A DNA stretch of 32,000 bases from an uncultured archaeon (GCA_964648855.1 CAZYLT010000001.1:360001-392000); one strand, 5' to 3'; positions 5,707-15,171 are shown, counted from the first letter of the stretch. Numbers and translations: made by a program. The notes: a model not told the origin generated them from the letters alone.

Positions 5707-6249
5707 TTATTCGCTTGAGCGTCTAGTACTAACGAGTGTCTTTCCAAGATTCTCGAAGATGTCAACGATACCCTCGCCCGTCTTTGCAGATGACTCCACG
5801 TAGGGCATGCCGTGTGCATCAGCGAATTCCCTGCCCTCCTTTGGCTCAACCACACGGTCAGGCAAGTCCGTCTTGTTTGCAACTAGCACCAAGGGAATCT
5901 TTTTCTTAATCGCCTTTTCCAATTCATTGAGCCACTCATCAAGCAGAAGGAATGTTCGGCGTCGGGTGACATCGAATACGAGCACGCCGCCGCTTGAACC
6001 TCTATAGTACATTGGTCTCAAAATCTGAAAGCGGCTCTGCCCCGCCACGTCCCAGATTTGCAGCTTCACAGTCAGGTTTTCACGGCTCTCACGTATATCG
6101 ATATTCTTGACAGCGAACTGAGAGCCTATCGTTGTCTTGTAATCGGTACGGAAGAAGCCATGAGAGAAGCGAGTGACGATTGCAGTTTTTCCTACTGCAC
6201 CCTCTCCGAGAATGACCACTTTAAACAGGTAATCGTACGTACTGCTCAT
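5707..6249 (-). CDS. Rab-like small GTPase (Ras superfamily)
   Basis: G1 GEGAVGKT, G2 TTIG, G3 WDVAGQ, G4 NKTD, G5 SAK; Rab-type N-terminus YDYLFK plus KLQIW, YYRG and LVFDVT. ATG at 6249. Confidence 0.95.
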   Translation of the reverse strand: MSSTYDYLFKVVILGEGAVGKTAIVTRFSHGFFRTDYKTTIGSQFAVKNIDIRESRENLTVKLQIWDVAGQSRFQILRPMYYRGSSGGVLVFDVTRRRTFLLLDEWLNELEKAIKKKIPLVLVANKTDLPDRVVEPKEGREFADAHGMPYVESSAKTGEGIVDIFENLGKTLVSTRRSSE

Positions 6250-6294
6250 CAGATTCAATTCCGACTCTTGTTTTGAGTGAAACGGTTGGGCTCA

Positions 6295-6310
6295 ACCTAA
6301 CGCGTTAGGT
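6295..6310. promoter_or_regulatory. Perfect 16-bp palindrome upstream of the Rab-like gene
   Basis: ACCTAACG-CGTTAGGT, 46-61 bp upstream of ATG 6249. Confidence 0.45.
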
Positions 6311-6371
6311 GCGCAGGCATCTAATAAGGTTTCGTTAGACCTAGAACTCTGCTATTGTATTAGCGATCCCA

Positions 6372-7214
6372 CTACTTCTTTTTCTCAAGAATTACCTCTG
6401 TGTCTTTCAGTCGTTGGCGGTCGAGGTCACCCTGAGCCCACTTCATAAATTTCTTGAGTAACCGATTGAAATTTTCTGGCTGCTGAACCATGGGGGAATG
6501 GTCGGCATTTCTTATGACTGCGATATCAGCTCGGGGAAGGGATTTCTCGAGCTCCCAAGCAACATTTGGGGGGATAATGTCATCATCATCTCCAACAATG
6601 ACCAAGGCAGGCATTTTGATTTCATCAAGTCTGTCAGAGATATTGAAGTCATCACAAACGTCCAAATCGCGGAAAATGCTCTTGGCGTTGAATTTTGTCA
6701 CCGTCTCTTGAAACTTGTTGAGAGAAAAAGTCTTGAAGTCTACATCGAGCGCTTCGGTTTCATAGGGTGGACTGTGGTCTTCAAATGCTTCAATGATGAG
6801 GCCTTTCACCAGTTTTCGAAGATTTAGGTCGGAAGAGGTGCCCACTAACACAATGGCATACGGAAGAGACACATCATGGCGTAGACAATATGCCATGACA
6901 ATACCTCCACCCATTGAGTGTCCAATAAGGGCGAAGTCATCTATCTCAAGGTGGTCTATCAGGGCGGCGACCTGGTCGGTGAATCCGTTTTCTATGGAGG
7001 GAGGCTTTGCAAACCTGTCACTCAGCCCATGACCGGACATGTCCAAGGCAATCACACGGTAGTCTTCCTTGAGTTTCAGTAACTGCAAGCTCCAAATCAG
7101 ATGAGAAGAGCCAGCTCCATGTATGAAGATCAAGACGGGAGTATCCTTCTGTTCATGCCGATCATCAAAATCGACATAATGGAGTCTGCAACCTCGGAAC
7201 TCAAAATATGGCAT
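6372..7214 (-). CDS. Alpha/beta-fold hydrolase
   Basis: HGAG oxyanion loop, GHSMGG nucleophile elbow, Asp in VGDDDDIIP, His in ADHSP. Confidence 0.92.
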   Translation of the reverse strand: MPYFEFRGCRLHYVDFDDRHEQKDTPVLIFIHGAGSSHLIWSLQLLKLKEDYRVIALDMSGHGLSDRFAKPPSIENGFTDQVAALIDHLEIDDFALIGHSMGGGIVMAYCLRHDVSLPYAIVLVGTSSDLNLRKLVKGLIIEAFEDHSPPYETEALDVDFKTFSLNKFQETVTKFNAKSIFRDLDVCDDFNISDRLDEIKMPALVIVGDDDDIIPPNVAWELEKSLPRADIAVIRNADHSPMVQQPENFNRLLKKFMKWAQGDLDRQRLKDTEVILEKKK

Positions 7215-7340
7215 GTGATGACCTCGTGTCTTTTCCCATAGAATACGAGCACTGCATATATTCGTTCTCTGGATAGTTGGCTGGGCTCATCGTCAGTTAC
7301 CTTTTTCTTTCAGTGGCGAGATGAAGGGCATGTGAAAAGA

Positions 7341-8720
7341 ATGGCAGAAAAATTGTTTGGAACAACGGGTATACGGAAAATATACGGCTCCGAATTCACC
7401 CTAGATATGGCAATGAAGTTGGGGAGAGCACTAGGCACATATCTCCAAACAGGAAGAATACTCATTGCAAGGGACACCCGAACAACAGGGAAAATGGTTG
7501 TCGATGCATTCGTATCAGGGGTACTCTCAACGGGCATCGATGTGACCCGGCTGGGTATAGTTCCAACACCGACATTGGCATACCTGACCAGAAAAAGGGT
7601 ATTTGATGCGGGCGTGATGGTAACCGCGTCCCATAACCCCCCAGAATATACAGGCATAAAATTTTGGCATAAGGATAGCATGGGATACACTTCAGAGATG
7701 GAGAGAGAAATCGAGAGGCTCTACCAATCACAAGAATTTCAGGTAGCACCGTGGAACGAGCTGGGTCAAGAAGCTGTCTTGGAGGATGCAGTAGAGGAAC
7801 ATATCTCTGACATCATCGACCACTGTGATAGTGAAGCCATCAGTCGCCAAGAGTTCAAGGTCATTGTCGATCCCGGAAATGGAGCAGCATGTGTCTTGAC
7901 TCCGTATCTTATGCGGAAACTAGGTTGTAAGGTTATCACAATCAATGGGCAGCCAGATGGGCATTTTCCTGGAAGAAGGTCTGAACCAGAAGAGGAAACT
8001 CTACAAGACCTCATTCATATGGTGAAAAAGCAGGGAGCGGATCTGGGAATCGCTCATGATGGAGATTCCGATCGAGGAGTATTTGTGACTGAAACAGGAG
8101 AAGTCGTAAGAGGAGACAGAACCATTGCCCTACTTGCAAAGACACTCTTGAAGAATGCCAAAACGGGCGTAGTTGTAACCACAGTGGATAGTTCAAAGGT
8201 TCTCGACGAAACGGTTCAGAGGGCTGGCGGGGATATTGTTCGGACACCAGTTGGCGACATCCAGGTTGCAGTCAAGCTAAAGGAGCTTGAAGGTATTATG
8301 GGAGGAGAAGCCTGTGGAGTGTTCATATTTCCTTCATTTCACATTGCACCAGAGCCTTTCCTGGCTGCTTGCAAGATACTGGAGATGATGGCTCACGTCG
8401 GAAAAAGCTTTGGCGAGCTGGTTTCTGAGATTCCGGTATACCCGTTATTGAAAACAAAGCTTGAGGTGGCGAATAATAGGAAGGAACCGGTCATGAAGGA
8501 ACTCTCAAAGATGTTACCAAAAAAGATAGATGGAATTCAAGATGTGATTACGGTAGATGGCATCGGATTAGTCCTAGATGATGGGTGGATTCTTGTAAGA
8601 CCATCAGGAACGGAACCGGTCATAAGGATAACTTGCGAAGCATCAACTGACGACCGAGCTCACGAAGTACTGGACTCATGTAAGCGAGTTGTAAAGAAGA
8701 CAATCTCTTCCCAGAAATAA
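7341..8720 (+). CDS. glmM: Phosphoglucosamine mutase / phosphohexomutase (archaeal GlmM/PMM type)
   Basis: LFGTTGIR, catalytic TASHNP, metal loop DGDSDR, phosphate loop VRPSGTEP. Confidence 0.88.
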   Translation: MAEKLFGTTGIRKIYGSEFTLDMAMKLGRALGTYLQTGRILIARDTRTTGKMVVDAFVSGVLSTGIDVTRLGIVPTPTLAYLTRKRVFDAGVMVTASHNPPEYTGIKFWHKDSMGYTSEMEREIERLYQSQEFQVAPWNELGQEAVLEDAVEEHISDIIDHCDSEAISRQEFKVIVDPGNGAACVLTPYLMRKLGCKVITINGQPDGHFPGRRSEPEEETLQDLIHMVKKQGADLGIAHDGDSDRGVFVTETGEVVRGDRTIALLAKTLLKNAKTGVVVTTVDSSKVLDETVQRAGGDIVRTPVGDIQVAVKLKELEGIMGGEACGVFIFPSFHIAPEPFLAACKILEMMAHVGKSFGELVSEIPVYPLLKTKLEVANNRKEPVMKELSKMLPKKIDGIQDVITVDGIGLVLDDGWILVRPSGTEPVIRITCEASTDDRAHEVLDSCKRVVKKTISSQK

Positions 8721-8755
8721 TAAGGGCAGAATAGCTTGGTCCTGTGCAAACAAGC

Positions 8756-8761
8756 TTTATA
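8756..8761 (+). promoter_or_regulatory. TATA box for the 8804 gene
   Basis: TTTATA about 43 bp upstream of ATG 8804, preceded by A-rich AAACAAGC. Confidence 0.45.
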
Positions 8762-8803
8762 GCCCAAACGAAATAAACGGTACAAAGAACGGAGCCAAAT
8801 CCA

Positions 8804-9235
8804 ATGGCTGAAGACGATGACGATTTCATCATGGAGGAATTTGAATGGGCCCTAAAGGACCCAACAGAAGAAAAGCTACGTCAACTCGGTGAAGTAGTCA
8901 GCATCATAACAGGAAAAATTGTTGATGCCATAGGTCAACTTGAAAACCGTATTAGTTCGTTAGAAGAAAATGTCAGTAACATGAGTTCTCGCATATCATC
9001 TCTAAGCTCGAGAGCGAGCAGTGCTAGTGCAGAACCCGCTGCGGAAGCAGTAGAATCCACACCCAGTCCACCAACATCGCCAAGCGTTGGTGGTGCCCCA
9101 GAACCAGCATCAGCCAGTGCAGGAGGCGGAGGGCCACCTGGAGGCGGAGGTGGTGGAATGACAATGATGGGGGAGCTCAAAGCATTGTTGGCGGCGAGAA
9201 GAAAGAAAGTAGAAGGCGGAGAAAAACAGGCTTAG
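8804..9235 (+). CDS. Coiled-coil + Pro/Ser/Gly-rich linker + C-terminal basic amphipathic helix (candidate actin-binding protein)
   Basis: Heptad pattern in IGQLENRISSLEENVSNMSSRISSL; linker PSPPTSPSVGGAPEP...GPPGGGGGG; tail MMGELKALLAARRKKVE. Confidence 0.7.
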   Translation: MAEDDDDFIMEEFEWALKDPTEEKLRQLGEVVSIITGKIVDAIGQLENRISSLEENVSNMSSRISSLSSRASSASAEPAAEAVESTPSPPTSPSVGGAPEPASASAGGGGPPGGGGGGMTMMGELKALLAARRKKVEGGEKQA

Positions 9236-9894
9236 GTCAATAATTTACGACTGTTCTTTTTGTAGAAAGGGCCTGCGTGGCGGGGCATAGAAACAGTGAA
9301 CGCCTCTGCGCGCGAACAAGCGCCTTGGACGCCTCTCAGTTTTGTTCGAGCATCATAGAAAGTCAAGTAGAAGCCTTCAGCTTTTGAAATCTGAGATTCG
9401 TGTTTCTTCAGTGCCAATAAGCTCTCATCGTAGGACGTGGTGATATCCACTATAAAGTGAGGATGTGAATGGAGAGTGTTGATTTCCATCTGTAGCATGC
9501 GATCCACTCTATGAGGTTCTTCGAACATTGTCTTGTGCGATGCCCATTCGATAGATTCCATAACAAGCTCCGCACAGATTCTGTGGTTACGATTGTAGTC
9601 CTCGCTAGAGTGCGTGATTATGATATCGGGACGGGACTGGAGGATAACCTCAATTACTGAGTCGGAAAGACTTCTATCGATTTCAAAGTCCCCTCGATTG
9701 GAAGGGTATATCTTTCTGACACCCAATATGTCACAAGCATTTGCAAGCTCCTCATTTCGTTTGTCATTTCCGGTTAAGCAAAGGACATCTACTGGAATGT
9801 CCGCCTTGGTATGATTTCTGATTGTCCCTCCAGCACCAAGACATTCGTCATCGGGATGTGCGGTAATCACAAGAATAGAATCCAAATCTGCCAT
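9232..9894 (-). CDS. bshB: PIG-L/LmbE family deacetylase, putative BshB
   Basis: ILVITAHPDDE, RNEELANACDILG, RPDIIITH, HESQI and AEAF; divergent from bshA-bshC. ATG at 9894. Confidence 0.8.
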   Translation of the reverse strand: MADLDSILVITAHPDDECLGAGGTIRNHTKADIPVDVLCLTGNDKRNEELANACDILGVRKIYPSNRGDFEIDRSLSDSVIEVILQSRPDIIITHSSEDYNRNHRICAELVMESIEWASHKTMFEEPHRVDRMLQMEINTLHSHPHFIVDITTSYDESLLALKKHESQISKAEGFYLTFYDARTKLRGVQGACSRAEAFTVSMPRHAGPFYKKNSRKLLT

Positions 9895-10008
9895 ACAGGT
9901 TACTCGGAGATGGTCACTAATCAAGTTTTACCAATGCTTCAGGGGTATATTCCCGCACCAAGCACCTTAAAGGTAGGTAGTCTTGATACGATACAAGAGT
10001 TGACAAGG

Positions 10009-11172
10009 GTGAAAATTGGAGTCAATCTATATCCTTCAGTCGGTGGTTCAGGATATCTTGCCACTCGACTAGGCCAGCATCTAGTTGAGAGAGGACACAT
10101 AATCCATTTCATAACATATCAAAGACCTTTCTCATTAGTGTGGGAAGATACGCGAGGAGCATTTGTGGACCTAGTTGACACTATCGACTATCCATTATTC
10201 AAGGACATCTGCCCGCCCTATTCAATGGCGCTAGCTTCGAAGATTGTCCAAGTTTCTCAAAACTCCCAACTGGATTTGATTCATTCACACTATGCCATCC
10301 CACATGCACTATCTGCATACATGGCAAGAGAAATTGTGGGGATACCTTATGTCATTACGATGCATGGCTCAGATGTACACTCGTTAGGTCTGGACCCAGC
10401 ATATCAACCAGTAGTAAAACACACAGTTCAACAAGCAAGTGCGGTCACCACGGTAGCGGCCTTTCTCCGAGATAGTGCTTACGAAAAGTTAGGTATTGAT
10501 AGAGAAATTCATGTTATTCCAAATTTCATTGATGTTGAGAAGTACAAACGGAAAGAGGGTATACGACTTGTAGTTGAAAGCGGTTGTGTATCGGTGAGAA
10601 CAGAGGAGGATGCCGAGGCCATCAACCCAGATCAGAGAGTCCTACTCCATGTTTCAAACTTCAGGAAAGTCAAGCGAGTCGTTGAACTGATAGAAATAAT
10701 GAAAATGGTAGTGGATGAGAAGCCAGATACCCGGCTTGTTCTCGTAGGAGATGGACCAAAGAGAGTAGAGGTTGAGCGTAAGATAGAGGAGCTAGATCTT
10801 TGCCAAAAGGTACACCTTCTAGGAATCAGAAGCAATGTACATGAAATCATGTGTTCATCTGATATGCTCTTGATGAATTCCTTGCAGGAAGGGATGCCAC
10901 TTGTTATCCTAGAGGCCATGGCATCGCAATTACCTGTTGTTACGACACCAGCTGGTGGAATACCGGAATTAGTAAGACCCGGAAAGGATGGGTGGGTAAC
11001 TGAAGGTTATGAAAAGGAAGAATTTGCTCATGCGATTCTAACCCTTCTTGATGATGACGCAAAACTGAAGAAATTTGGACATACTGGATGGAAGAGAGTC
11101 AAGGAGAAATTCTCAGCAGACATAATTGTACCAAAATATGAACAGGTCTTCCAAGAAGCAGTTCAAAAATAG
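10009..11172 (+). CDS. bshA: N-acetyl-alpha-D-glucosaminyl L-malate synthase (GT4)
   Basis: KIGVNLYPSVGGSG, HFITYQRPF, HSHYAIPHA, TMHGSD, HVSNFRKVKR and EGMPLVILEAMA are BshA hallmark motifs. True start is GTG 10009 (or TTG 10000), not 9811. Confidence 0.9.
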   Translation: MKIGVNLYPSVGGSGYLATRLGQHLVERGHIIHFITYQRPFSLVWEDTRGAFVDLVDTIDYPLFKDICPPYSMALASKIVQVSQNSQLDLIHSHYAIPHALSAYMAREIVGIPYVITMHGSDVHSLGLDPAYQPVVKHTVQQASAVTTVAAFLRDSAYEKLGIDREIHVIPNFIDVEKYKRKEGIRLVVESGCVSVRTEEDAEAINPDQRVLLHVSNFRKVKRVVELIEIMKMVVDEKPDTRLVLVGDGPKRVEVERKIEELDLCQKVHLLGIRSNVHEIMCSSDMLLMNSLQEGMPLVILEAMASQLPVVTTPAGGIPELVRPGKDGWVTEGYEKEEFAHAILTLLDDDAKLKKFGHTGWKRVKEKFSADIIVPKYEQVFQEAVQK

Positions 11173-11183
11173 GAGAGTATTGA

Positions 11184-12902
11184 GTGACCAAGAGAAGCAT
11201 TACACAGGCATACTTGGACTATATTTGGAAGTCCAAACACGAGGAGTTGGCATCTGAACTCTACAACGACCCACCTATTTTGATGAACGACTTGAGAAAG
11301 CGCGCAGTCAATTTGAGAAAGACGTATGCTGAGCAAGACTGGCATACAGATGATAGGACTGAGAGATTGCAGAGGGCGTTGACAAGGATTAACCGTGAGC
11401 TAGGTTGTCTAAGTCCGAAAGTCAAGAAAAGCATTGAGAAACTACATGAGGGCGCTGTTGAGGCAGCTCATCAAAGCGTTGTATTAGGCGGCCCTTGCTA
11501 TATTCTGAACAAGGCCATCACAGCAGAAAGATTGGCGGTCCTGAACTCGACCGAGCAGACATCTCTTGTCCCATTTTATTGTATTGCTGATTATGATATA
11601 GTTCAGAGTGAGTTGACCCATACGAGAACGCCCTTGATGGGACCAAGTGGAAATATAGTGAGCATACCGGTTCCTGATGAATACGAGTTCTCACCTGTGA
11701 GTGTTGTGCCTTTACCCGAATATCATTGGTATGAGGAAGCGGAGGAGAGTATTAGAACGGGGTATAGCCCATTGTTCAAAGTACTTGAAGGAAATACACG
11801 AAAGCTCTTTGACGAAAGGCTTGAATATGCACTTTCCATAACCAGACAAGCATTTCTTAACTCCGAAACTCTGGGGGAATGGGCACAAAGGATTATTGCA
11901 AGGATTGTGAACATTGAAGGAAACCTAGGACTACCTCTAGTTCCAGCTTCTGACGATGAGATACGAAAACTATGGGCGCTTGGCATGGAATTTCTTCTCT
12001 CCAAAGAGATACGAGAGAATTTCGTTCAGATGTACGGTCAAGCCACGAAAAGAATTCAGAATAACGGGTTTGAGCCAGGTGCAGGAGGAAGGGATAGCGC
12101 GTATGTCCCATTCTTCTATGAATGCCAAACAGAATCATGTAATCGGGCTAGAACAGAGCTGTTCTATGAATTGGATGGGTCGAAAGCATTACTCAGAGGA
12201 GAATGTCCTCTTTGCAACGAAAAAATCCAATTAGAAGTCGATGCGGAAACTCCAGATCTATCAGACCAAGCTACGTTTCTATCACCCAGAGTTGATTCTC
12301 GACAATTTGCAGTCGATTCCTCGATCCCTATCATAGCTCATGCGGGAGGGCCGGGAGAGACTGCGTATTATGCGCAAGTCATACCGATTGCAAGAAAATT
12401 GAAGATACCATTTCCTATGTTTGTGAAATACCCTCGTGTCTTTTTCAATACCCCATGGAGCGAAGATATGGCTAACCAGCTAAAGACAAGCGAGATTCCC
12501 GTGCTTCACAGAGGTGAGATGTTTCGGGCCATGGGACAAGTTACTCGAAATAGAAACAAAGAGAACTATGACGAGATGAATGGGGCAATCCAGGATCTTG
12601 CAGGAATCATTTGGACGACACATGATGAGCTGTTAGAATCTTTGCATAAACTTGAGAAGGAGATTGAGGAAACCGAGGAGCATGTAGAGGAAGACAGACT
12701 AGAGCTGAAATTCAAAATTGAAACCTATCTGTCTTGGGCATATGGTCGGTATGCAAAGGGAAAGAATGCACAGGAGTCATCTTGGTCATGGATTGAATGG
12801 GTACTAAATGCGGGACTTGGTGATTTATTTGGACCGTACGAGCGGGCCTATATGCAACAAATGAAGAATGGAGCAACGCTTTTTGTAAATTTCATGGTAT
12901 GA
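11184..12902 (+). CDS. bshC: Bacillithiol biosynthesis cysteine-adding enzyme BshC-like
   Basis: EAAHQSVVLGGPCYILNKAITA (cf. BshC GQQ..GGPLY..YK), ADYD, LSPRV, GGPGETAYYAQ, PR, coiled coil, terminal QE; 11 bp downstream of bshA. Confidence 0.82.
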   Translation: MTKRSITQAYLDYIWKSKHEELASELYNDPPILMNDLRKRAVNLRKTYAEQDWHTDDRTERLQRALTRINRELGCLSPKVKKSIEKLHEGAVEAAHQSVVLGGPCYILNKAITAERLAVLNSTEQTSLVPFYCIADYDIVQSELTHTRTPLMGPSGNIVSIPVPDEYEFSPVSVVPLPEYHWYEEAEESIRTGYSPLFKVLEGNTRKLFDERLEYALSITRQAFLNSETLGEWAQRIIARIVNIEGNLGLPLVPASDDEIRKLWALGMEFLLSKEIRENFVQMYGQATKRIQNNGFEPGAGGRDSAYVPFFYECQTESCNRARTELFYELDGSKALLRGECPLCNEKIQLEVDAETPDLSDQATFLSPRVDSRQFAVDSSIPIIAHAGGPGETAYYAQVIPIARKLKIPFPMFVKYPRVFFNTPWSEDMANQLKTSEIPVLHRGEMFRAMGQVTRNRNKENYDEMNGAIQDLAGIIWTTHDELLESLHKLEKEIEETEEHVEEDRLELKFKIETYLSWAYGRYAKGKNAQESSWSWIEWVLNAGLGDLFGPYERAYMQQMKNGATLFVNFMV

Positions 12903-12914
12903 AAACAAGAACGG

Positions 12915-12951
12915 GGCACCAGAGCCGAGTTTCTGGTGCCTTTGCGTTTTT
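12915..12951. terminator. Hairpin between convergent bshC and aminotransferase genes
   Basis: GGCACCAGA-N8-TCTGGTGCC followed by TTTGCGTTTTT; A-rich flank on the other side. Confidence 0.65.
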
Positions 12952-14224
12952 ACTCTAGCTGTTCTGATAGAAGATTGCCAAGCTTCTCAATACCTTCGGA
13001 TATCACATCTGGTTCAGCATAGGAGTATCCTAACCTCATCGTGTTAGGCTGTGGTGAGGTTGGCTTTAACTCGTTCCCATTTTCCGTCAGGTCGTATCCG
13101 GTAATGGGGTAGAATGGGCCACCAGGAACATAGATAATATCATTTGGGAGCGCTACATCCATCATGAATTTCTTGCTATCAAAATCGGGTTTCTCGCTTT
13201 CCCACCAGATGAAGAAGCCACCTGTGGGATCAGTTCTCTTGCCAGTGGGGAATGATGAGTCTATTGCTTTTGCCATTGCTTTGTATCGCTTTTCGTACTC
13301 GGGAATTGCGACCTTCATGGCCTCGTCAATGTAGTTCATGTAGTACTCGTTCAAGATTCGCTGAACTAAGGTGGACGTACATAGGTCAAGGTAGCCTTTA
13401 TCCTTCAGAACTTGTTCTCGAACATTGGTTGGCATCACAGAATATCCGACTCTAAGAACGGCAGCCTCTTTGCTTGTAGTTGCAAGGTATGCTACTCTCG
13501 TGTTCTCTTTATCAAGTGTCTTAATCGCCTTTGGATTCTCTTTGAATTGAATTTCGGCGTAAGCGGAGTCTTCTATCAAGAGAATATCGTGGCTCTCGCA
13601 GATGTCAAATAGAGCCCTCCGACGTTTCATCGGGATTGTAGTACCCTTTGGATTATCTGAATCGGGAACAACATAGAGGATATCAGGAACTTTACCAAAC
13701 TTGATTTTTGAAACATGAACCGCTTTCTCAACATATTCAGGAATCATACCATCAAGGTCTGTCGGTACAGTTATGATACGCCCGCCAAGCTTGACAGCAG
13801 GCACTAGGAATCCAAGGTAAGCCGGGGACGGAGTGATTATTACATCACCAGGGTCAATGAGAGTATCGAGGAGCGCATAAAGCGCCTGTTGTGAGCCATT
13901 TGTAATGGATATTTGTTCCCATTCTCCATCATCACAATCAATAGGTATTCCACGAACCTCACATAGTCTCTGAGCAAGCGTGTTTATAAACCAAGGCTGA
14001 CCACCTGTTGGCCCGTAGTTAAAATCCTCTAGTGCCATCTTTGGATTTTCTTTGTACCTTTCGCTCAAATCGGCCATAATATCAGCGAAGATATCTGTGG
14101 GAATTATGCCGGGTTTGCCGCCAGCATAATAATAATCCACATGATACTCCAAGAGAGCTCGGATTTGAGATTCTTCGATAAACGAAGTCCAACTCGAAAA
14201 ACTATATCCATCTTTATCTGCCAT
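12950..14224 (-). CDS. PLP-dependent aminotransferase class I/II (Aro8/LysN-like)
   Basis: AGGKP, YGPTGG, ITNGSQQAL, NPKG, IEDSAY, SKEAAVLRVG (PLP lysine), MRLGYS. Confidence 0.92.
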   Translation of the reverse strand: MADKDGYSFSSWTSFIEESQIRALLEYHVDYYYAGGKPGIIPTDIFADIMADLSERYKENPKMALEDFNYGPTGGQPWFINTLAQRLCEVRGIPIDCDDGEWEQISITNGSQQALYALLDTLIDPGDVIITPSPAYLGFLVPAVKLGGRIITVPTDLDGMIPEYVEKAVHVSKIKFGKVPDILYVVPDSDNPKGTTIPMKRRRALFDICESHDILLIEDSAYAEIQFKENPKAIKTLDKENTRVAYLATTSKEAAVLRVGYSVMPTNVREQVLKDKGYLDLCTSTLVQRILNEYYMNYIDEAMKVAIPEYEKRYKAMAKAIDSSFPTGKRTDPTGGFFIWWESEKPDFDSKKFMMDVALPNDIIYVPGGPFYPITGYDLTENGNELKPTSPQPNTMRLGYSYAEPDVISEGIEKLGNLLSEQLE

Positions 14225-14255
14225 TAGAACTCATTCCATCAACTACGATATGGTC

Positions 14256-14368
14256 ATGTACACTTTTGTACAGCAGTTCGAGAATATGTGCCAATTCCCT
14301 TTATCTGTTTCTGATTATGAGATGGAAAAAGCGGTCTCTTCCGACCCAGTATGTACACTTCCGTACAT
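14256..14368. promoter_or_regulatory. Twin palindromic operator ATGTAC-ACTTYY-GTACA (14256-14273 and 14351-14368)
   Basis: ATGTACACTTTTGTACAG and ATGTACACTTCCGTACAT, 95 bp apart, in the 158-bp gap upstream of the aminotransferase. Confidence 0.65.
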
Positions 14369-14382
14369 CTTGTTGGTGCAAT

Positions 14383-15171
14383 CTACTGCATGGTTTGTTC
14401 GGCTATGGTTCTCGCAGCCTCAGTAGGATTATCAGCATTAATTATGGAACGTGCAACAATAACATATTCTGCTCCAGCTTGTATTGCATCACTAGCGGAC
14501 CCTCCCTGAGCTCCAACTCCAGGCGAGAGTATTGGTACCGTATCACCAAGAATGTTCTTGACTTCGGTGATCCGTTCCGGATAGGTTGCCCCCACAATCA
14601 CTCCGTCCGCCTCCCACTTCTTTGCACGCCGTGCAAATTCGATGTAGAGTGGCTCCCACTTCTTTCCCTTTTCATCCAGCGCGACCTTTAGGCCATATCC
14701 CTCTTCTGACCCAGGATGAGACATATAGCACAGACTGATGATTCCCTTAGACCGTTCAGTGGCAACTTTGAAAACTGAATCAAGACCTCCGTCCCAACCC
14801 ACAAAGGGATTAACAATGACAGCATCGAAGCCGGCATCCAAATAATACTTGGCGATTACTTCGTTTGAGTGACCGATATCGTTGATTTTGCAGTCCATGA
14901 TAGCTGTCAGGCCTAAGTCATGGATTGACTCAATCATACCAGGGATTTCGTCATAAAGACCCAAAGGCAATACGAGATGTCGGTTGAATTTGTATGCGAT
15001 TACATGATCAGAAGTCTGGCGGATGATACTGCGAGCCTTCTCTGCTAGCCTTTTTCTCTCGTCAATGCGGGCTTCACTTCTATAGAGTGTTGTATTTGCT
15101 ACAAGATCCAATCCGAGGATGAGTCTGCTTTTCCTGACAAATTTGGCGGCTGCAAGTTTTCTCTTATACAC
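14383..15171 (-). CDS. pyrF: Orotidine 5'-phosphate decarboxylase
   Basis: LILGLD, AYKFN, DCKINDIG, MSHPG, VGAT, SPGVGAQGG, IVARSI. Confidence 0.95.
   Translation of the reverse strand: MYKRKLAAAKFVRKSRLILGLDLVANTTLYRSEARIDERKRLAEKARSIIRQTSDHVIAYKFNRHLVLPLGLYDEIPGMIESIHDLGLTAIMDCKINDIGHSNEVIAKYYLDAGFDAVIVNPFVGWDGGLDSVFKVATERSKGIISLCYMSHPGSEEGYGLKVALDEKGKKWEPLYIEFARRAKKWEADGVIVGATYPERITEVKNILGDTVPILSPGVGAQGGSASDAIQAGAEYVIVARSIINADNPTEAARTIAEQTMQ

Follow-up and report, generated by a model that had tools for sequence, protein, structure and literature searches.

The subject of this analysis is a 32,000-nucleotide stretch of DNA from an uncultured archaeon (GCA_964648855.1, CAZYLT010000001.1:360001-392000), referred to here in its entirety as the window. 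Between positions 9232 and 12902 it contains a cluster of three genes, which encode a PIG-L deacetylase, the glycosyltransferase BshA and a BshC-like protein, and which probably make bacillithiol, or a very close analogue of it, in Thorarchaeota. A preliminary description of the window had placed the same three open reading frames (ORFs) here, with a 114-bp gap between the divergent deacetylase and bshA genes and with the BshC-like ORF beginning 11 bp after bshA; all three ORFs were confirmed and the coordinates were reproduced exactly, the bshA stop lying at 11172 and the BshC-like start at 11184. The features of the cluster are as follows.

9232..9894, minus strand: PIG-L/LmbE deacetylase gene, candidate bshB, 220 amino acids (aa), ATG start at 9894 (PF02585)
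9583..9600, minus strand: D99-Y100-N101-R102-N103-H104, altered second active-site motif of the deacetylase (canonical D-R-H-P-D-H; alignment to 2ixd)
9847..9858, minus strand: H13-P-D15-D16, HxDD metal-binding and general-base motif of the deacetylase, aligning to His12/Asp14/Asp15 of B. cereus BshB 2ixd
9895..10008, no strand: divergent intergenic region of 114 bp between the deacetylase gene and bshA (alignment of family genomes)
10009..11172, plus strand: bshA, predicted glycosyltransferase family 4 (GT4) N-acetylglucosaminyl-malate synthase, 387 aa, GTG start at 10009 (TIGR03999)
10888..10899, plus strand: E294-G295-M296-P297 of BshA, replacing the canonical ESFG (alignment of 20 Asgard BshA proteins)
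11184..12902, plus strand: Asgard-type BshC-like ligase gene, candidate for the third step, 572 aa, GTG start (PF10079)
12123..12215, plus strand: Cys4 zinc-ribbon-like element of the BshC-like protein, C314, C319, C341 and C344 (conservation, structural model)

In Pfam and NCBIfam searches the three proteins match their families far beyond chance (E 9e-114 for BshA with TIGR03999, E 1.6e-21 for the deacetylase with PF02585, E 2.4e-19 for the BshC-like protein with PF10079). BshA scores 380.3 bits with TIGR03999, compared with an equivalog cut-off of 273.7 bits and with 146 bits for the next family, and it is the sole copy in the genome above that cut-off. The family model is specific: among 14 control genomes it was passed only by B. 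subtilis and D. radiodurans, and by none of the four archaeal controls. The protein has the two-domain GT4 architecture (PF13439 and PF00534) and matches solved BshA structures with 254 bits (B. anthracis, 2jjm/3mbo) and 247 bits (B. subtilis, 5d00). The functionally important residues of S. aureus BshA, namely H118, N171, VSN202-204, K209, E280 and E288 (PMC10361700), are kept in the window protein as H119, N172, V215-S216-N217, K222, E294 and E302, while S. aureus T120 is replaced by Ser121 in 20 of 20 Asgard copies. The identification of BshA from its motifs holds, with the protein above the equivalog cut-off, the named donor and catalytic residues present and the ESFG motif altered. The equivalog-level match marks BshA as a predicted N-acetylglucosamine (GlcNAc)-malate synthase that would use L-malate as its acceptor.

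The BshC-like protein scores 70.4 bits with PF10079 (cut-off 27), and it matches B. subtilis BshC only marginally when the two are compared directly (E 0.003). An AlphaFold2 model built on 95 homologues has a predicted local distance difference test score of 96.8. The structure closest to this model is BshC 4wbd, matched along the entire chain (Foldseek E 3.2e-20, template modelling scores 0.68/0.72; VIA Z 33.6 with a root-mean-square deviation of 3.3 over 473 residues), and the modelled fold would comprise, over the full length, a Rossmann core with insertions and a helical C-terminal part. In a family alignment of 95 sequences, the protein keeps all four invariant positions and 11 of the 12 nearly invariant ones, the sole exception being position 132, where it has Tyr and Phe is usual. 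The kept family-wide positions include Q97, K110, D138, G389, G103, E143, F310, R323, E392, Y395, Q530 and E531, and nearly all of the conserved positions are fixed among 117 Thorarchaeota-type proteins. The second-best structural match is the class I lysyl-tRNA synthetase (LysRS) 1irx, with Z 20.6 over 303 residues, followed by GluRS, CysRS and MetRS with Z of 10-13; to judge from the model, the rank of 1irx suggests that BshC and class I LysRS may be specifically related.

The Thorarchaeota-type protein also carries an element that is absent from canonical BshC. All 117 full-length Thorarchaeota-type proteins keep cysteines C314, C319, C341 and C344, while their other cysteines vary, and the corresponding Cx2-4C...CxxC pattern marks 19 of the other 28 Asgard-type representatives and each of the five members of a sister group described below. 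In the model the element appears as a beta-rich insertion (residues 310-353) bordered by F310 and R323, which are conserved throughout the family. Since four protein ligands leave the coordination sites full, the zinc is likely to be structural and not a cysteine-binding zinc of the kind found in CysRS or MshC.

An exhaustive search of 1.84 billion representatives for Asgard-type BshC returned 47 proteins at E <1e-30, followed by a gap down to ordinary BshC at ~1e-11. The named members of this near group come from Thorarchaeota, Heimdallarchaeota, Kariarchaeum, Hodarchaeales, Ranarchaeia and Promethearchaeota, together with one record labelled Bathyarchaeota. The Asgard-type clade was recovered with support of 98-99 in both of two trees (FastTree and IQ-TREE LG+G4 quick searches, both unrooted and both with long-branch warnings). 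Its sister group in both trees consists of five unnamed zinc-ribbon proteins, and the clade together with these five is split from canonical BshC by a long branch with support of 100. The clade structure is well supported in trees that, being unrooted, give neither a root nor a direction of transfer. The sister proteins P0138/P0317 lie in a glycan-type cluster (L087:7938-12431 and L088:3559-8052) whose genes encode GNAT, PIG-L, BshC-like, WbqC, PIG-L and glycosyltransferase family 2 (GT2) proteins; near them are genes for DegT, a hexapeptide acetyltransferase, a FemAB-like protein and a flippase, and an exosortase-family gene.

The deacetylase, the product of the only PIG-L gene in the genome, scores 77.6 bits with PF02585 (cut-off 28.2). 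NCBI names it merely a PIG-L family protein; its two best NCBIfam matches are BshB1 and BshB2, and its best solved relatives are the BshB structures 2ixd and 6p2t. With the residue roles and the HxDD+H motif as defined for BshB (PMC4101496), the metal and general-base site is complete, and each of 120 Thorarchaeota-type homologues carries H13, D15, D16 and H104. H104 corresponds to the zinc ligand His113 in the 2ixd alignment, and Arg46 to BshB Arg53, which is thus kept; an 8-residue deletion precedes it. His95 is invariant among the same 120 homologues. In the second active-site motif, Y100 and N101 occur in all 120 and N103 in 115; since these residues are near-universal, the D-Y-N-x-N-H motif is, as far as the alignment tells, fixed in Thorarchaeota and not a product of decay. 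The cluster-linked deacetylases of three other Asgard families (f14, f10 and f9) share the Tyr, the His95 and the 8-residue deletion and retain D-Y-H-x-[DE]-H, while those of families f13 and f26 have the canonical D-R-H-P-D-H. It follows from this pattern that an Asgard-type BshB exists, of which Thorarchaeota carry a further derived form.

The distribution of the genes was surveyed in 400 Asgard genomes using the TIGR03999 and PF10079 cut-offs. BshA was found above its cut-off in 146 of them and PF10079 in 156. By family, the counts for BshA and BshC were 76 and 75 of 85 genomes in f1 (the window's own family), 30 and 30 of 31 in f8, 3 and 3 of 3 in f9, 12 and 11 of 12 in f10, 11 and 11 of 12 in f13, and 16 and 17 of 19 in f14. 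In f11, f21 and f22, the last being the largest family with 135 genomes, BshA was absent and BshC-like matches were scattered and mostly weak. The cluster is widespread (~37% of the 400 genomes) yet patchy, and is missing from the largest sampled family. The bshA gene adjoins the BshC-like gene, in differing orientations, in f1, f8, f9, f10, f14 and f32, and a PIG-L gene is adjacent to the pair or within a few kb of it in f1, f9, f10, f14 and f32 but not in f8. The PIG-L linkage was read from individual loci because the family is nearly ubiquitous in the phylum (341 of 400 genomes), which made a phylum-wide search uninformative. In bacteria, BshC was originally assigned by phyletic co-occurrence and occasional co-localisation with bshA (PMC5790435), and the co-occurrence and adjacency seen in Asgard genomes are evidence of the same kind. 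In one f14 genome, bshA and the BshC-like gene are separated by a nitroreductase-family gene (L068:8636-9166).

A different arrangement is found in f13 and f26 (L014-L024), where the genes form a canonical bacterial-type bshC-bshB-bshA cluster with PF10079 scores of ~270 bits and a D-R-H-P-D-H deacetylase. In this cluster BshA reads ESFG, and in the trees the BshC is placed next to that of Firmicutes. Two forms of different origin thus occur within the phylum, and the f13/f26 cluster looks like a second, separate bacterial acquisition. The cluster in the window, with BshC and BshB of archaeal subtypes, is probably old in Asgard archaea and not a recent bacterial import.

The host of the window had been described as an apparent Asgard archaeon, and it belongs to Thorarchaeota: the closest public locus, in Candidatus Thorarchaeota archaeon TEKIR_14, shows 86% BshC identity and an identical gene order. 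The window also encodes a HerA-like ATPase and a GTPase of the Ras/Rab type (165 bits), and it gives a weak match to Vps36/EAP30. The block at 5707-15171, which comprises genes for the Rab-like GTPase, an alpha/beta hydrolase, GlmM, the deacetylase, BshA, BshC, a class I/II aminotransferase and orotidine monophosphate decarboxylase, recurs in other genera of f1 (L045, L076, L077). One same-family genome bearing the block is a single contig of ~3.2 Mb, and NCBI assigns its BshC to Thorarchaeota. The idea that the contig might be bacterial was checked and can be set aside because of the TEKIR_14 locus, the family-wide block, the single-contig genome and the even base composition, with GC content uniform along the window.

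The two features between the alpha/beta hydrolase gene and the cluster are given below.

7332..8720, plus strand: glmM, archaeal phosphoglucosamine mutase (TIGR03990 Arch_GlmM, 540.8 bits against a cut-off of 439), context and not part of the cluster core
8804-9235: 143-aa ORF between glmM and the deacetylase gene, its end overlapping the deacetylase stop by 4 bp

As had been noted earlier, glmM is one gene away from the cluster, separated from the deacetylase gene by the 143-aa ORF. Its role beside the cluster is that of context, as a source of UDP-GlcNAc, and of the loci compared, those from its own family (L045, L076, L077) show this linkage, whereas those of other Asgard families do not. 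The 143-aa ORF had no Pfam or NCBIfam match and no tblastn match in two other-genus loci at E 1e-6; RNA scans detected no tRNA and no Rfam RNA within the window. The divergent gap measures 114 bp because the starts at ATG 9894 and GTG 10009 are supported by an alignment with three other same-family genomes: all of them share the CAT of the deacetylase start, and the position of GTG 10009 is ATG in one of the three. Longer ORF calls, in which the deacetylase gene and bshA overlap, are unsupported by this alignment of start codons. Within the gap, short blocks similar to TAATCAA and to CCTTAAAGG are kept in part in four family genomes that otherwise diverge there, and these blocks are possible archaeal promoter elements for both divergent genes.

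In the proposed pathway, BshA would move GlcNAc from UDP-GlcNAc onto L-malate, as its equivalog-level homology suggests. The divergent PIG-L zinc hydrolase would then strip the N-acetyl group, converting GlcNAc-malate to glucosamine (GlcN)-malate, and the BshC-like enzyme, with its Rossmann fold resembling that of class I aminoacyl-tRNA synthetases (aaRS), would join cysteine to the free amine. The cysteine specificity of the Asgard-type BshC is presumed from its partnership with BshA.

A number of observations weigh against the proposal that the product is bacillithiol or a very close analogue. The deacetylase is below the equivalog cut-offs of both BshB1 (TIGR04001, 83.9 against 182.5 bits) and BshB2 (TIGR04000, 63.8 against 195.25), and the BshC-like protein is below that of BshC (TIGR03998, 65.5 against 265.8). 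Tyr100, Asn101 and Asn103 of the deacetylase replace Arg109, His110 and Asp112 of BshB, the latter two being the His/Asp pair that neighbours the third zinc ligand. The ESFG motif of BshA, whose Glu and Phe contact GlcNAc (PMC10361700), reads EGMP in the window and in all own-family copies; elsewhere among the 20 Asgard proteins it reads EGAP in f14, ESFG in f7, f8, f9, f10 and f13, and ESFN in f32. Outside Asgard, the nearest relatives of the Asgard-type BshC clade are encoded in a cluster for glycan biosynthesis and not in a thiol cluster, and even Bacillus BshC has yet to be shown to add cysteine in a reaction reconstituted in vitro (PMC5790435). The host genome is 94.6% complete, and in it no match was found to the bacilliredoxin Brx (PF06491) or to YtxJ (TIGR04019), and none above the cut-off to YpdA (best TIGR04018 match 74.8 bits against 339.9). 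Finally, no bacillithiol product has been measured in any archaeon (PMC7278568), in agreement with the preliminary description, which knew of no biochemical test.

The same description had spoken of a complete pathway. This is correct in that all three enzyme families are present, but the deacetylase and the BshC-like protein remain below the equivalog cut-offs and carry lineage-specific changes. Its more cautious suggestion, that the archaeon may use bacillithiol or a variant of it, is supported by a BshA at the equivalog level, by sole best candidates for the second and third steps, and by the archaeal contig.

Because Brx, YtxJ and YpdA went undetected, thiol recycling, if it occurs, would use other proteins. 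The genome search found no gamma-glutamylcysteine ligase (no PF04262, and for PF04107 just a 43-residue marginal match) and no EgtD, so that none of the other dedicated thiol routes tested for is present. The DinB superfamily includes bacillithiol S-transferases and is not specific to bacillithiol. Five DinB_2 and three DinB matches were found in the genome, some at the same loci, and none in the four archaeal controls, which speaks in favour of the bacillithiol reading. The best DinB-family match (75.5 bits, G000:C2:1602-2054, L083) contains one in-frame TGA, which could be a sequencing error, a mark of a pseudogene or a recoded codon. In f10, a divergent gene adjoining the BshC-like gene (L072:5617-6510) encodes a 297-aa thioredoxin-reductase-like flavoprotein, with 153.7 bits for TIGR01292 (below the cut-off) and 30.6 bits for YpdA; this flavoprotein is a candidate disulfide reductase for the pathway product in that lineage.

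The observations listed above leave room for other readings of the cluster. It is unlikely, though deserving of attention, that the BshC-like enzyme attaches a different amino acid in place of cysteine, or that it modifies an amino sugar within a glycan, so that the product is not a redox thiol. One sister zinc-ribbon protein is encoded amid PIG-L, WbqC, GT2, DegT, GNAT, FemAB-like and flippase genes, and the bacillithiol-dependent redox proteins of bacteria are all missing from the host; the wider BshC family may include amino-sugar N-aminoacyl ligases outside thiol synthesis, and because of the location of this sister protein in a glycan cluster, amino-acid specificity cannot be assumed from family membership. 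On the other hand, the linkage and co-occurrence of the Asgard-type gene in six Asgard families are with an equivalog-level BshA and not with glycan-assembly genes, and the window has no nearby flippase, polymerase or lipid-carrier glycosyltransferase. We regard it as somewhat more doubtful still that the cluster yields a modified bacillithiol-like thiol, with an altered sugar (for example N-acetylgalactosamine, the C4 epimer) or an altered aglycone, specific to Thorarchaeota and perhaps f14. The change from ESFG to EGMP in all own-family copies of BshA, and to EGAP in f14, points in this direction, as Gly versus Pro at this motif position switches glucose/galactose donor preference in a related GT4 capsule polymerase (PMC10361700), and the fixed D-Y-N-x-N-H of the deacetylase lacks Arg109, which docking ties to the malate part of the BshB substrate (PMC4101496). 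By analogy, the EGMP change may be taken as a lead on donor specificity, short of a demonstration. Against a modified thiol, BshA still scores 100 bits over its equivalog cut-off, the Gly/Pro rule was derived from a GT4 enzyme that is only distantly related, and the cluster contains no epimerase. Correlated remodelling of BshA and the deacetylase was considered and is borne out by half: f14 has the BshA change, but its deacetylase keeps the His and the Asp (D-Y-H-x-D-H).

The remaining two readings are far less probable. Pairs of GT4 and PIG-L enzymes also open the synthesis of mycothiol and of glycosylphosphatidylinositol (GPI) anchors (PMC4101496), and the pair in the window might accordingly make a GlcN-inositol compound, such as a mycothiol-like product or a precursor of GPI or of glucosaminyl-archaetidylinositol, in place of a malate glycoside. 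This is very improbable given that the scores for MshA (TIGR03449, 67.6 bits against 462.5) and MshB (TIGR03445, 25.4 against 224.35) are far below their cut-offs while BshA passes its own, and that the third gene is BshC-like and not MshC- or CysRS-like, CysRS structures having Z ~12 compared with 33.6 for BshC. Contamination of the bin by bacterial DNA, or a very recent bacterial transfer, might be suspected from the typically bacterial occurrence of bacillithiol genes and from the bacterial-type bshC-bshB-bshA clusters of f13 and f26, which do nest near Firmicutes sequences. For the window this explanation is refuted for practical purposes by the flanking Rab-like GTPase and archaeal GlmM genes, in a block common to several genera including the one-contig 3.2-Mb genome, by the even GC content, and by the position of BshC inside an archaeal clade with 98-99% support. 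The synthesis of bacillithiol, or of a very close analogue, accordingly stays our preferred interpretation.

That such genes occur in Asgard archaea had been anticipated in the preliminary description and is already on record: Rawat and Maupin-Furlow (2020, PMC7278568) reported 39 InterPro hits in archaea for BshA and as many for BshC, most of them from Asgard, and NCBI labels the Thorarchaeota proteins 'bacillithiol biosynthesis BshC'. A search of the papers available found none pairing bacillithiol with Thorarchaeota or with the other Asgard lineage names searched. Gene-level presence is thus not new, and the present results are of value for the variant features they describe and for the clear route to experiments. 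What is added is an archaeal variant of the pathway, a clade of zinc-ribbon BshC proteins, fixed changes in BshA and the deacetylase, the missing redox partners, and a sister ligase in glycan clusters. The Thorarchaeota-type cluster is the best candidate for archaeal bacillithiol, and the deeply divergent zinc-ribbon form offers an independent protein for attempts to reconstitute the BshC reaction, a problem dating from 2010.

It is tempting to speculate further that Asgard archaea carry an ancient bacillithiol-type pathway of their own, that the zinc-ribbon BshC represents the older state of a broader family of amino-sugar N-aminoacyl ligases, and that the Thorarchaeota thiol is chemically distinct, the last because of the EGMP sugar pocket and the D-Y-N-x-N-H deacetylase site. 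We give this combined scenario a small chance of being right. If it were true, the distinct Thorarchaeota thiol would be the first archaeal glycoside thiol, and the archaeal BshC could be a tractable form for solving the cysteine-donor chemistry.

Compared with the BshA-BshB-BshC systems of Bacillus, Staphylococcus and Deinococcus, the Thorarchaeota system consists of the same three enzyme families and is clustered as well. The likeness extends to the BshA catalytic residues, the HxDD+H motif and Arg53 of the deacetylase, the BshC fold (Z 33.6) and the invariant BshC residues. The differences are that the Thorarchaeota BshC has 16-17% identity with B. subtilis BshC, falls in a separate archaeal clade and has an added Cys4 zinc ribbon; that the deacetylase has Tyr/Asn/Asn for Arg109/His110/Asp112 and the 8-residue deletion before Arg53; that BshA reads EGMP for ESFG; and that the host is an archaeon in which no Brx, YtxJ or YpdA was found. 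Class I aaRS with zinc-binding insertions, especially LysRS 1irx, share with the BshC-like protein the Rossmann catalytic core and connective-peptide insertions; these matches cover the catalytic core only, ~300 of its 572 residues, with no sign of tRNA binding or aminoacylation. Within the same phylum, the f13/f26 clusters encode the same three functions with a BshC that lacks the zinc ribbon and scores ~270 bits with PF10079. The mycothiol system of Actinobacteria (MshA-MshB-MshC) follows a shared logic, with a GT4 enzyme, a PIG-L deacetylase and a class-I-aaRS-like ligase that joins cysteine to the free amine; in Thorarchaeota the ligase is BshC-like and not a CysRS paralogue, and the expected acceptor is malate and not inositol phosphate.

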